From an uncultured Candidatus Rokubacteria bacterium (GTDB lineage: Bacteria; Methylomirabilota; Methylomirabilia; Rokubacteriales; CSP1-6), in assembly GCA_963747235.1 (NCBI GenBank), contig CAVVEU010000031.1, forward strand, positions 83,467-147,466: DNA of 64,000 bases, written 5' to 3'. Under the pieces are notes generated by a model. The model worked only from the letters and a program-made list of their open reading frames with translations, was not told the origin of the DNA and searched no databases. The translations under genes were made by a program, and so were the position numbers. Shown piece by piece: positions 13,253-16,480 of this stretch (positions are counted from its first letter, which is position 1; each line of letters starts with the position of its first letter).

Positions 13253-14797
13253 GTGTTTTCCGTCCTCGACGTCCTGCTGCGCGGCCTGATCCTCGCCGCG
13301 CAGGCTACCGCGGTGGGCGGGGTGTGCTTTCTGCTGCTCGTGGCCCGCGCGCCCGAGGCGCCGCGCTCGCTGCTGCTCATCGCCGCCGCGGCGGTCACGC
13401 TCGCGCTGGGCCAGGCGCTGTCGCTCGGCAACGAGCTGTTCGTGCTCCTCCACGAGGCGGCCTGGCCGCTGCGCGCGGCGCTCGACACGCTCTACGTGCA
13501 GGTGAGCGTCGTCCGGATCGCGGCCGGGCTCGCGCTGGCCGGGTGCGCCCTCGGACTGCGCCGCGCCCGCGGGCCGTCGCGGCTCTGGCCGGCGGTGGTG
13601 GCGCTGGCCGCGGTGCTGGTCGTGGCCGCGCCGTGGACGAGCCATGCCGCCGCGCGGCTCGACTCCCGCGTGCTGCTGCTGCTGCTCGACGGCGCCCATC
13701 AGCTTGGCGCCGCGGTGTGGGTCGGCGGCCTCGTGCACCTGACCGCGGCCGCGTTCCGGCGCGGCGATCGGCCCTGGCCGGTGGCCCTGCTCCGGCGGTT
13801 CTCGAACCTGGCCCTGGGCGCCGTCGCGGTCCTGGTGGGCGCGGGCGTCGGCCTCACGTGGAACTACGCGCCGGACCAGACCGCGATCTTCGGCACCGCG
13901 TACGGCCTCATGGTCATGACCAAGGTGGCGATCCTCGGCGGCCTGCTCGTGCTGGGGGCGCTGAACTCCCGGGCGATCCGGCGCATGGACGGCGCGCCCG
14001 AGGCCGACCAGCTCACGCTTCGCCGCTTCGTGGAGGTCGAGGTCGGCCTGGGCCTCACCGTGCTCTTCGCGGCCGCCTCGCTCACCTCGCTGCCGCCGGC
14101 GGTGGATCTCACCCACGATCGCGCCACGCTCTCGGAGGTCGCGACGCGCTTCACCCCGCGGATGCCGTCGCTGCGCTCGCCCTCGATCTCCGAGATGCCG
14201 ATCGACGATCCGCTGGCGCCCCGCAACGACGCCGATCGCGCCTGGTCCGAGTTCAACCACCACGTGTCCGGGATCCTGGTCCTCACCATGGGCCTGCTGG
14301 CCCTGCTGCACGCCACGGGCCGGGCCCGCTGGGCGCGGCACTGGCCGCTCGTCTTCCTGGGCCTGGCCGCCTTCATGGTCGTGCGCAACGATCCGGGCTC
14401 GTGGCCGCTCGGCCCGGAGGGCTTCTGGGAGGGCTGGCTCGTCGCGACGGTGGCGCAGCACCGGGTCTTCGTGCTGCTCGTGATCGTCTTCGGCATCTTC
14501 GAGTGGATGGTCCGCAGCGGCCGGCTGGCGTCGCGGCGCGCAGCCCTGATCTTCCCGCTGCTCTGCGTGATCGGCGGCGGCATGCTGCTGAGCCACTCGC
14601 ATGCCGCGCAGAACCTCAAGGACGAGTTCCTCCTCGAGGTGACCCACGCGCCGCTCGGCCTGCTGGCCTTGCTGATCGGCTGGGGGCGCTGGCTCGAGCT
14701 TCGGCTCCCCGAGGGGCGGGGGCGCGTGCCGGGGGCGCTCTGGGCCGTCGGCCTCGTGCTCGTGGGCGCTCTCCTCATCATCTACCGGGAGAGCTAG
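13253..14797 (+). CDS. CopD-family membrane protein with extended C-terminal domain
   Basis: WTSHAAA, HQLGAAVWVGGL, RRFS, TAYG..MTK; His-rich TM C-terminal region (WSEFNHH, QHR, LSHSH). Confidence 0.78.
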   Translation: MFSVLDVLLRGLILAAQATAVGGVCFLLLVARAPEAPRSLLLIAAAAVTLALGQALSLGNELFVLLHEAAWPLRAALDTLYVQVSVVRIAAGLALAGCALGLRRARGPSRLWPAVVALAAVLVVAAPWTSHAAARLDSRVLLLLLDGAHQLGAAVWVGGLVHLTAAAFRRGDRPWPVALLRRFSNLALGAVAVLVGAGVGLTWNYAPDQTAIFGTAYGLMVMTKVAILGGLLVLGALNSRAIRRMDGAPEADQLTLRRFVEVEVGLGLTVLFAAASLTSLPPAVDLTHDRATLSEVATRFTPRMPSLRSPSISEMPIDDPLAPRNDADRAWSEFNHHVSGILVLTMGLLALLHATGRARWARHWPLVFLGLAAFMVVRNDPGSWPLGPEGFWEGWLVATVAQHRVFVLLVIVFGIFEWMVRSGRLASRRAALIFPLLCVIGGGMLLSHSHAAQNLKDEFLLEVTHAPLGLLALLIGWGRWLELRLPEGRGRVPGALWAVGLVLVGALLIIYRES

Positions 14798-14812
14798 CGC
14801 GCGAGGCGCTGA

Positions 14813-14991
14813 CGCCGCGGGTGGGCGGCGGCGCGGGGGGCGGGGCCCTCCCGGGAACACGCTGAGTCGCTAGCCGCGTCACGCCGTCGCAATCGAGCCA
14901 CGAGACAGGGCCCGTCGCAGCCTTCGACAACCCGCAGAAGACACGGTTCCCGGGAGGGCCCCGCCCCCCGCACCACCGCCCACCCGCGGCG
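14813..14991 (-). repeat. Structured palindromic element, copy A (46-bp stem around 87-nt core)
   Basis: 14813-14858 pairs with 14946-14991 (two G.U wobbles on the minus strand); core is homologous to copy B. Confidence 0.85.
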
Positions 14992-15128
14992 CCGTGCCGG
15001 TGGTTACCTCCGCCATCTGATTCGTCCTTCATCAAGATCCAAGACCTGCTCCGCCGCTCGGCGCGCTTTGTCGGAATGTAAGACCTGACCCTGCCGATGC
15101 TTCGCGGGTTCGACTGGACGCGCGGGGA

Positions 15129-15296
15129 GGGTGGGGGTGGTGGTGCGTGGTGCGGGGGCCTCCCCAGACCCGTGTCTTCTGCGGGTGGTCGAAGGCGCGC
15201 GGGCTCTGTCTCGTGGCTCGATCGCGACGGCGTAGCGCGCATGCGACTCAGCGTGGTCTGGGGAGGCCCCCGCGCCGCGCGCCGCCGCCCCCGCCC
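15129..15296 (+). repeat. Structured palindromic element, copy B (42-bp stem around 84-nt core), inverted relative to A
   Basis: 15129-15170 pairs with 15255-15296 with six T.G wobbles and no mismatches; core CGTGTCTTCTGCGGGT...CGACTCAGCGT is shared with A. Confidence 0.85.
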
Positions 15297-15299
15297 GCT

Positions 15300-16480
15300 T
15301 CAGGCGGATTCGAGGAGCAAGCCGGTGAGGTAGCGGGATTCGGGGATGGTGAGGATGATGGGGTGGTCGCGGCTCTGGGTCAGGGTGGCGAGGACGCGGG
15401 TGCGGATGTTCGCGTCGCCGGCGGCCTGACGGCAGATCTCCTCGAACATCGCGGGCGTCACGTGGTGGGAGCAGGAGAACGTGGCCAGCCGGCCGCCGCG
15501 CTCGAGCAAGCGGAGGCCGCGGATGTTGATCTCCTTGTAGCCGCGCGCGGCGGCCTCGACCGCGTCCTTGCGGCGCGTGAAGGGCGGGGGATCGAGCACG
15601 ACCAGCCCGAAGCGCTCGCCCTTCGAGTCCAGGTCCCGCAGGCCGTCGAAGGCGTTGCCGCTCCGCAGCTCGGCGCGGGCCTCCACGCCCGTTGAGCGCC
15701 AGATTGCGGCCGGCCAGGGCCAGGGCGTCCGCTGAGGAGTCCAGCAGCAGCGCGCGCTCGGCGCCGCCCAGCAGCGCGTGGCAGGCGAAGCCGCCGCCGT
15801 AGCAGAAGGCATCGAGCACCCGGCGCCCCTGGGCCATGCCGCGCGGTCAGGAGCCGATTGTCGCGCTGGTCGAGGTAGAGGCCGGTCTTCTGGCCGGCGC
15901 CCAGGGTCACCGCGAAGCGGCCCTGGCCTTCCTCGATGATCAGATCGCCGCTGGCCAGGTCGGCCTCGGGCGGGGTCTCGCGGACCGCGTCGAAGCCCTC
16001 GATGCGCGCCGCCGTCGGGTCGTCGAGCCGCACGATCCGGCCGTCGGGGAAGATCGCGGTGAGCGCCTCGCGGATCCACTCCGCGTTGCGCGCCATGCCG
16101 AGCGTGAGGCACTGGATCACGCTCACGGGCCCGTAGCGGTCCACCACCAGCCCGGGCAGGCCGTCGGCCTCGCTCCAGCAGAGGCGATAGGCGGGCGTGA
16201 CGAGCGACGCCGCGCGCCGGTACTCGAGCGCCGCCTCCAGGCGTCGCCGGATCAGCGCCGCGTTGACGGCCTCGTCGGTCCGCGTGAGCAGGCGGCAGAC
16301 CAGCGAGGAGCGCGGGCTGTAGAAGCCGCGCCCGAGGTAGCGGCCGGTGGCGTCGGTGACCTCGACGGCGGCGCCGGCGGACCACGAGCCTTTGAGATCG
16401 GCCACTTCGCCCCGGTAAATCCACGGGTGCCCTGCCCGGATCCGGCGCTCGGCCCCTCGTTTCAGGATCAGAGTGGCCAG
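15300..16480 (-). CDS. rlmI: RlmI-like PUA-domain SAM-dependent rRNA methyltransferase (frameshifts near 15835 and 15685)
   Basis: GHPWIY, SEADGLPGLVVDRY, GQKTGLYLDQRDNR, VLDAFCYGGGF, LDPPPF, TFSCSHH, PESRYL across three frames; CTG start proposed. Confidence 0.88.

Follow-up and report, generated by a model that had tools for sequence, protein, structure and literature searches.

A dispersed hairpin repeat with a covarying long stem and a conserved loop at gene ends in Rokubacteria

We analysed a stretch of 64,000 nucleotides (nt), called the window here, from an uncultured Candidatus Rokubacteria bacterium (assembly GCA_963747235.1, contig CAVVEU010000031.1, positions 83,467 to 147,466), in which two hairpin elements share the 502-nt gap between two convergent genes. 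The gene on the left encodes a CopD-family membrane protein and the one on the right a PUA-domain/RlmI-like methyltransferase. Each element has a long stem that closes a loop, or core, with four conserved blocks (B1, GAAG, B3 and B4), and the strand that carries these blocks as written is called the sense strand. The two elements, designated A and B, are copies of a dispersed repeat of soil Rokubacteria/Methylomirabilota. Their parts, in window coordinates, are as follows.

14813-14991, minus strand: copy A, whole element; its sense strand is the minus strand
14813-14858, minus strand: 3' arm of the closing stem of copy A, C-rich on the sense strand (inverted repeat of 46 nt, 96% complementary; fold)
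14859-14945, minus strand: core (loop) of copy A, 87 nt, with B1 CCGTGTCTTCTGCG, GAAG, B3 TCTCGTGGCYCG and B4 GCGRSTCAGCGTG (104.1 bits with the covariance model R1 described below)
14946-14991, minus strand: 5' arm of the closing stem of copy A, G/T-rich on the sense strand (same inverted repeat; fold)
14992-15128, no strand: spacer of about 137 nt between the 5' ends of copies A and B (from comparison with the related genome G002)
15129-15296, plus strand: copy B, whole element; its sense strand is the plus strand
15129-15170, plus strand: 5' arm of the closing stem of copy B (inverted repeat of 42 nt, 86% complementary; the six non-complementary positions are T.G)
15171-15254, plus strand: core (loop) of copy B, 84 nt (105.1 bits with R1)
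15170-15183, 15191-15194, 15209-15220 and 15243-15255, plus strand: blocks B1, GAAG, B3 and B4 of copy B, respectively (sequence)
15255-15296, plus strand: 3' arm of the closing stem of copy B, ending 3 nt before the stop codon of the right neighbour

An earlier note on this locus had described two inverted copies between convergent genes, with near-identical cores and with closing stems that differ in sequence and yet pair over 46 and 42 bp. All of this was borne out. The cores are 88.5% identical over 87 aligned positions and stand in opposite orientations with the 5' ends facing each other, and a repeat search found the arms to be 96% and 86% complementary, the rest being T.G. There are two such positions in copy A and six in copy B, and on the sense strand the T always belongs to the 5' arm and the G to the 3' arm. 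Extension of the arms beyond the limits given in the note added one G.T pair in copy A and one transversion mismatch in copy B. With flanks included, the fold energies of the two copies were -176.6 and -164.6 kcal/mol, mostly from the long stem.

The assembly to which the window belongs (G000; 5.57 Mb, 70.9% G+C, 42 contigs, 88% complete) contains eight copies of the element, namely the window pair, a second divergent pair on contig C40 and single copies on C2, C8, C15 and C33. All eight fold alike. A BLAST search with the core gave matches in 27 of 61 relatives, among them 20/20 genomes of the genus; many of the matches lay at contig ends. Because the same fold recurs in eight copies of one genome and in many more in its relatives, it is not a product of chance. 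A covariance model, R1, was then built from 116 distinct copies. It matched 38 of the 151 genomes sampled from the phylum, a tally that includes G067 and G159 with one weak match each. By family, the matches fell in 35/93 genomes of f1, 2/11 of f4 and 0/46 of the other nine families, with 1 to at least 25 copies per matching genome. An exact two-block pattern retrieved 102 stretches from a collection of species-representative genomes. Among the 80 listed of these 102, most were titled Candidatus Methylomirabilota, Methylomirabilia or Rokubacteria, and the loci of the minority listed under other names also had 62-75% G+C. The pattern had no match among viral contigs, and a viral origin was therefore rejected.

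The supposition of a multicopy family foreign to Rfam was supported as well. No covariance model of Rfam 15 reached its gathering threshold with the element, and none that was related appeared even at E values up to 10. The best look-alikes were GC-rich plant miRNA hairpins, MIR1437 at 42.5 and 33.7 bits (threshold, 168) and mir-642 at 26.5 bits (threshold, 90). When the whole window was scanned at the gathering thresholds, one tRNA was the only match. The practical side of this is that covariance-model scans can mistake the element for a miRNA-like hairpin, and that the element disrupts assemblies. A literature search in full text on repeats, hairpins and noncoding RNA of Rokubacteria/Methylomirabil* returned no such element, which leaves room for an entry in a supplementary repeat catalogue. 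In the accessible part of PMC10434106, the phylum appears only in lists of metagenome-assembled genomes. The family is thus apparently undescribed so far.

Across the family, units are 140-195 nt long. The stem, mostly of 35-50 bp, is GC-rich, with a G/T-rich 5' arm and a C-rich 3' arm, and often opens with GGGYGGG and closes with CCCRCCC; A is found at position -1 of the unit in 47% and G at +1 in 50%. Sequence shared among copies is confined to GGGYGGG/CCCRCCC at the outer end of the stem and ~12 bp at its inner end; the remainder of the arms differs from copy to copy, with compensatory change. In the inner 14 stem pairs, 98.4% of the alignment cells were paired and 12 of the 14 pairs had changed on both sides, with shuffle and slid controls far below. 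Arm pairing averaged -24.9 kcal/mol for cognate and -15.9 kcal/mol for non-cognate arms. An all-against-all comparison of the first 30 stem positions gave 30,428 double differences that kept Watson-Crick pairing versus about 3,300 one-sided ones. The covariation that the earlier note had seen in two closing stems therefore holds among many more copies, and pairing in the closing stem is very strongly constrained.

Such stems might also be expected of a functionless DNA palindrome, selfish or neutral, if its arms were held identical by template-switch (quasipalindrome) correction and if the gene-end pattern described below merely reflected tolerated insertions. The arms evolve at about the rate of third codon positions and are nevertheless paired over 40-48 bp, for which mechanical homogenisation is the easier explanation. 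However, neutral DNA would not keep the loop blocks invariant in over 100 copies that are old, have diverged and stand at conserved sites. We consider a functionless palindrome rather unlikely, also in view of the mispairs, which are biased toward the type tolerated on one strand, a bias that strand-symmetric repair does not predict.

This bias was quantified in the 84 elements whose stems reach 25 bp or more, with G.T and A.C counted by the same rule. The results showed 3082 Watson-Crick pairs, 83 mispairs of the G.T type, 16 of the A.C type and 49 transversion mispairs on the sense strand. G.T exceeded A.C in 39 elements, and the reverse was found in 8. The polarity was repeated in other genera, with G.T versus A.C counts of 14 versus 3 in G168 and 22 versus 0 in G147/G164/G081. 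Wobbles are thus not distributed at random between the strands, and the excess of 83 over 16 indicates that one defined strand folds, as the earlier note had proposed. That one strand folds, as RNA or as single-stranded DNA, is the best-supported claim of this study. The narrower rule that the U always lies in the 5' arm and the G in the 3' arm applied to all eight wobbles of the window pair but not to the family, in which 54 were T(5').G(3') and 29 were G(5').T(3'); with wobbles in both arms, the rule is peculiar to this pair. Genes tend toward the leading strand, and in the genus of the window the sense strand serves as template for the adjacent gene. Deamination biased by transcription or replication would therefore be expected to give more A.C on the sense strand, contrary to the observation, and the direction of the G.T bias appears opposite to that from deamination of the non-template strand of the neighbour gene. 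In G168, the G.T bias is kept despite a mixed orientation to genes.

We next consider the loop. Over its ~85 nt, the four blocks, compared among the 116 sequences, are each invariant or conserved to at least 90%, and they are separated by variable spacers. B1 follows immediately after the 5' arm, GAAG and B3 come next, and B4 stands right before the 3' arm. Here the claims of the earlier note fared differently, since the covariation that was found in the closing stem did not extend to the core. A covarying inner helix had been suggested from the two copies, but beyond them cognate segments paired no better (-9.6 kcal/mol) than non-cognate ones (-9.7/-9.8 kcal/mol), and sub-segments behaved likewise, in a test for which the stem arms served as the positive control. 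The suggested pseudoknot, CGGGCY with GGCTCG, was paired in only 57% of cells. The outer half of a central hairpin was unpaired in 42-75% of the sequences (47-87/116). Two short stems of 4 bp were well paired: CUUC/GAAG, 99.4% paired with 13 one-sided changes, and CUCG/CGAG, the inner 4 bp of the central hairpin, with one-sided changes only and 22 G.U at one pair. The only changes in either are from U-A to U.G or from G-C to G.U, and core pairs changed on both sides were found only in poorly paired proposed helices (57-70% of cells paired). When 58 cores were compared with dinucleotide shuffles, z was about +0.3 to +0.5, with means of +0.34 and +0.32 on the two strands, a slightly worse folding. 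RNAalifold on a MAFFT alignment recovered the closing stem and an invariant UGC/GCG contact without covariation, and nothing else. Because neither covariation nor excess stability was found, a folded or catalytic core was rejected. Since the blocks are nevertheless invariant, the core is conserved as sequence and is probably displayed open rather than compactly folded.

These results bear on the noncoding RNA (ncRNA) explanation favoured in the earlier note. On such a view, the copies would be independent genes for small trans-acting or catalytic ncRNAs that have a folded core and a promoter of their own. A strand-polar fold, blocks conserved beyond the neutral level and short core stems that vary only toward wobble pairs are what such genes would show, and, according to the Minerva preprint, multicopy structured RNAs with divergent doublets do exist, TwoAYGGAY being one (10.64898/2026.09.22.753630). 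But the core lacks compensatory change, its variable segments do not prefer their cognate partners, and on neither strand does it fold better than shuffled sequence. Nor did we find signs of independent transcription: there was no sigma-70-like promoter at 14600-15500, no shared upstream motif in 9 pair spacers or 107 upstream flanks, and the pair spacers, down to 50 nt, are unrelated. An own promoter was rejected on these grounds. The patchy occurrence among genera, the copy number of 1 to at least 25 and the lack of an Rfam family at threshold also argue against ncRNA genes, which we regard as unlikely.

No intrinsic-terminator pattern with a T run was found. Metatranscriptome contigs from four RNA-library runs extended from the neighbour gene ends into the adjacent arm and core, e.g., 14603-14870, 15165-15602 and 15095-15297; these data give neither strand nor transcript ends, and DNA carry-over is possible. 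Inside the hairpin the contigs are interrupted, a usual effect of inverted repeats on assembly, and one joins 14870 to 15057. They are a hint of transcription at most.

The genomic setting was examined with GC3-based gene calls, which are crude and leave some wrong-frame proteins among the flanking genes. In 112 cases the flank downstream on the sense strand could be called, and in 99 of them it was a convergent gene. A convergent stop codon stood no more than 200 nt from the base of the stem on its 3' side in 86 of 107 elements, at a median distance of 18.5 nt. The end of a co-directional gene lay within 200 nt upstream in 47 of the 107 (median, 52 nt). Where both gene ends were present, the convergent gene was the nearer in 28 of 32. 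None of the 121 elements of a first set stood between divergent genes, that is, in promoter regions, a distribution that tolerated insertions of a functionless palindrome would also give. The adjacent genes are diverse, with 32 unrelated clusters among 87; from C-terminal sequences, without domain searches, we take them to include pyruvate kinase, MreB, MltG-like, RNase H-like and response regulator genes. Close pairs were divergent (-,+) in 9 of 9 distinct pairs of the first loci and in 16 of 17 close pairs among the R1 matches listed, where one was (+,+) and none was convergent. Each member of a pair adjoins its own gene, and the spacers between members measure 50-263 nt and are unrelated to one another. 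The 18 elements called in G168 (genus g17) differ in their contexts, which were (+,+) in 6, (-,-) in 3, (+,-) in 4 and others in 5.

Some further features of the setting were recorded. In G168, elements L179-L195 carry an extra outer inverted-repeat module of ~20 nt, with ...CTTCGGATCNC.GAGAC.GGAC on the 3' side and the complement on the 5' side, and elements of this genome stand in both orientations to genes, also between tandem genes. The adjacent convergent gene ended with TAG in 61 of 87 cases; by crude calls, the frequency of TAG was 36.5% genome-wide (1314/3596) and 45.5% in convergent pairs (549/1206), and TAG is unusually common for a genome of 71% G+C. The enrichment beside the element is modest and comes from non-independent data. 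Two elements in direct orientation about 4.8 kb apart were found in three genomes of the genus, G005 (C98:13016/17843), G017 (C1:19545/24351) and G009 (C44:4398/9188), probably one orthologous locus. Partial or overlapping copies stood beside full ones at L079 (4351-4513), L140 (2094-2160), L014/L086 (about 1360-1394) and G012:C182:12353-12513, which suggests rearrangement or deletion within pairs.

Evidence for gain or loss came from comparison of sites that are filled in one genome and empty in another. In G002, of the same genus, the two genes that flank the window pair are 66 nt apart with neither element between them. The neighbouring features in the window are as follows.

13253-14797, plus strand: left neighbour, CopD-family membrane protein of 514 aa (open reading frame [ORF] list; Pfam CopD, 74 bits; codon-position GC, 0.73/0.49/0.97)
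14795-14797, plus strand: TAG stop codon of the left neighbour, outside the element
14798-14812, minus strand: tail of 15 nt from the CopD stop to the stem of copy A (sequence; comparison with the G002 empty site)
15067-15091, plus strand: unit of a shorter repeat resembling repetitive extragenic palindromic (REP) sequences, with the core AAGACCTGACC at 15080-15090; the unit is shared with the empty site of G002
15300 to about 16405-16460, minus strand: right neighbour, PUA-domain/RlmI-like methyltransferase, stop codon at 15300-15302, outside the element

The spacer at 14992-15128 is partly homologous to the entire intergenic region of the G002 empty site, so that part of the 66 nt, including the short REP-like unit, remains in the window between copies A and B. 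The presence of this unit at the empty site shows that it is independent of the hairpin element. The tail at 14798-14812 is missing from the G002 empty site and thus arrived with the element or arose later. The CopD TAG also serves as the stop in G002; an in-frame TGA at 14810-14812, four codons past this TAG, abuts the stem of copy A.

Conversely, some sites that hold an element in relatives are empty in G000 and measure 11-17 nt. At the L042 site, the convergent stops of G000 are 11 nt apart (TGA...TCA), and in a relative both stops form the outermost pairs of a 176-nt hairpin. Another 11-nt site holds the element in opposite orientations in two genomes (L050 and L017), and at the L072 site G000 retains only an apparent 3' arm. 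A stem that can take in both convergent stop codons and a solo-arm relic both count in favour of the palindrome explanation discussed above. Several convergent gene pairs in G000 have only ~11 nt between their stops, e.g., C24:434272-434290 and C31:42758-42781, which leaves no room for a terminator hairpin. Since many convergent genes are this close at empty sites, the element may separate convergent transcription units.

The copies are not recent. For each of the eight copies in G000, an orthologous copy occupies the corresponding site in other species, and copies within a genome are 70-88% identical. At an identity of 66% in third codon positions of the neighbouring gene, orthologous cores reach 79% identity and arms 73%; owing to the invariant blocks, even cores that are not orthologous reach 75.5%. 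This makes the family an old one with occasional gains and losses, and each copy is constrained in place, which is not expected of a purely selfish repeat.

The earlier note had also raised a non-autonomous mobilised element. This fits the filled and empty sites, but the linked HUH/Y1 transposase or reverse transcriptase that it suggested looking for was not found. In G000, at its 88% completeness, PF01797 (Y1) and PF00078 (reverse transcriptase) gave 0 matches each, and a retron or other ncRNA templated by a reverse transcriptase was rejected because no such enzyme was found in the genome. A single-copy Y1 (RAYT-like) gene is present in 12 of the 20 genus genomes, always away from the listed elements; it also occurs in element-free genera and is absent from the element-bearing G021, G023 and G026. 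With Y1 neither co-located nor co-distributed with the elements, a RAYT partnership was rejected. A search for a parent insertion sequence within G000 found block B1 only in the eight elements and in one near-match.

Because a full-length integron integrase was found in G000 (C18:18188-19132, minus strand; TIGR02249, 457.8 bits versus a cut-off of 265), we also considered a structure-specific single-stranded DNA recombination site, attC-like in its logic, for this integrase, another recombinase or an HUH enzyme. In integrons, attC sites lie directly behind a gene stop, and the strand that folds is the complement of the coding strand. The element would resemble them in that its folding strand in the window's genus is complementary to the adjacent coding strand, that it abuts a stop and that a one-strand fold matters more than stem sequence. 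Integron integrases scored above the cut-off in 19 of the 61 relatives (a tally that includes G029), and the filling of one tiny intergenic site in both orientations points the same way. However, the base of the hairpin is GGGYGGG...CCCRCCC, without the R and L boxes of the attC consensus RYYYAAC...GTTRRRY, and AAC/GTT is found instead at the inner end of the stem. The stems are continuous, perfect and twice the usual attC length, with no bulged, extrahelical bases. Elements are solitary or in divergent pairs, never in cassette arrays, and adjoin syntenic housekeeping genes, and orientation is mixed in G168. None of the eight elements is on the integrase contig C18, and no cassette or repeat array was obvious in the 7.7 kb upstream of the integrase gene. 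The integrase and the element co-occur loosely, the former being present in 8 element-negative genomes and the latter occurring without it in G021, G042 and G045. An attC-like site is therefore very unlikely. The 7.7 kb upstream of the integrase contain another palindromic repeat (CCCTCTCCCC...GGGGAGAGGG).

Taken together, we interpret the element as a dispersed, non-coding hairpin repeat of one family-level clade of Methylomirabilota/Rokubacteria, similar to REPs and to miniature inverted-repeat transposable elements (MITEs), that is or once was mobile, that selection retains at gene ends and that acts in single-stranded form. We give this interpretation a probability of about 0.5. Units would have inserted into, or replaced, short DNA behind stop codons, mostly between convergent genes, and would thereafter have been retained at the same sites across species. 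Stem sequence would drift freely as long as pairing is kept, closing the loop of ~85 nt with its four invariant blocks. The block-sense strand would fold, and the loop would most likely be an unfolded recognition surface for a trans-acting factor. As to function, we infer that the fold may act in RNA read through from the neighbour genes, where the long hairpin could end, block or process the transcript at the gene boundary, and that whatever moved the element may also have used the single-strand fold.

Several observations weigh against this interpretation. The orientation rule is not universal, as the mixed contexts in G168 demonstrate. Counts from related genomes are not independent and overstate the number of events. 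No recurrent neighbour gene or transposase-like gene was found in ~140 flanking loci by the crude gene calls, beyond large generic clusters. Neither a promoter at the locus nor a shared upstream motif was detected, as described above. No target-site duplication was seen at filled/empty junctions (L042, L050, L072, L111, L119 and others), and the flanks contain no conserved target or leader; mobility consequently rests on presence and absence alone, which deletion could also produce. Likewise, no conserved 5' leader or 3' tail forms part of the unit, the flanks clustering by orthology only. At 70-88% identity, the copies are old and give no sign of current activity. Finally, perfect pairing over 45 bp is poorly explained by pair-by-pair selection, and template-switch homogenisation of the arms may contribute.

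A bolder version, which we regard as a long shot, is that the element is active at gene ends as one folded strand whose sequence-free stem shows the 85-nt four-block loop to a host enzyme (an integron-type integrase, HUH enzyme or recombinase) that inserts or exchanges it precisely behind stops, and that it has since been co-opted as a boundary between convergent genes. If this were true, the element would follow an attC-like or REPIN-like logic with an architecture of its own. Rokubacteria/Methylomirabilota are abundant uncultured soil bacteria whose non-coding DNA is almost uncharacterised. The element offers a clean natural case in which long-stem pairing, strand identity and a few loop blocks are preserved and the rest drifts to saturation. 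That only these features are preserved points to a specific partner, either a protein or a process, that acts at gene boundaries on single-stranded nucleic acid.

Among known systems, the element is best filed with the bacterial intergenic hairpin repeats (REP/BIME, ERIC, Correia and TwoAYGGAY), from which it is distinguished by a conserved loop on a drifting, perfectly paired long stem. With the REP/BIME and REPIN-RAYT systems of Enterobacteria and Pseudomonas it shares the character of a non-coding GC-rich palindrome behind stops, often between convergent genes, and the inverted doublets; the single-strand hairpin is thought to be the active form of REPs, and the clade also has the separate short REP-like family and the single-copy Y1 gene mentioned above. 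However, REPs measure 20-40 nt, have a conserved stem and a terminal tag and occur in hundreds of copies, whereas the element has a variable stem of 35-50 bp, a conserved 85-nt loop and 1 to about 25 copies. It also differs from REPIN-RAYT in that G000 has no Y1 gene and none is linked to or co-distributed with it. Correia elements (CREE/NEMIS, Neisseria) and MITEs are similar in their 100-200 nt, in terminal inverted repeats that give a long RNA hairpin, in their location at gene ends and in filled and empty sites. Their ends are conserved in sequence, whereas the arms of the element differ between copies with compensatory change; MITEs have a target duplication, which is TA for Correia elements, and none was seen at the element junctions, nor was a parent insertion sequence found in G000. 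ERIC/IRU, imperfect palindromes of 127 bp in Enterobacteria, are transcribed intergenic foldback repeats similar in length to the element, with an orientation-dependent position relative to genes. They are conserved over their whole length and the element in its loop only, and there is no sequence or Rfam relation. According to the Minerva preprint, which extends the family, TwoAYGGAY RNA (RF01731) is a multicopy intergenic RNA with a long basal stem and an unknown function, its copy number differs widely between strains, doublets are enriched and 68.4% divergent, and its alignment shows covariation and a multi-hairpin fold (10.64898/2026.09.22.753630). The element resembles it in being multicopy and intergenic with a long basal stem, in its widely varying copy number and in doublets that are mostly divergent (the 16 of 17 among the pairs listed versus 68.4%) and differs in having no AYGGAY loops, no Rfam match at E values up to 10 and no core covariation.

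The short REP-like family (~26 nt, ending in AAGACCTGACCCC) has about 70 sites in G000, e.g., C29:112893/112926 and C33:106769/106803, often as inverted doublets 34-70 nt apart and directly beside stop codons. An 11-mer from it gave 142 matches with at most one mismatch versus 45 for the reversed control, about half of them the full unit. This repeat may be the partner of the single-copy Y1 gene of the relatives. As for the right neighbour in the window, its C-terminus is conserved in relatives, which carry the gene as one ORF of 386 aa. In the window, its codon-position GC signal changes frame between about 15626 and 15925, and the match to the PUA_3 domain is confined to the frame of the ORF at 15458-16405; this reflects either an assembly error or a broken gene.

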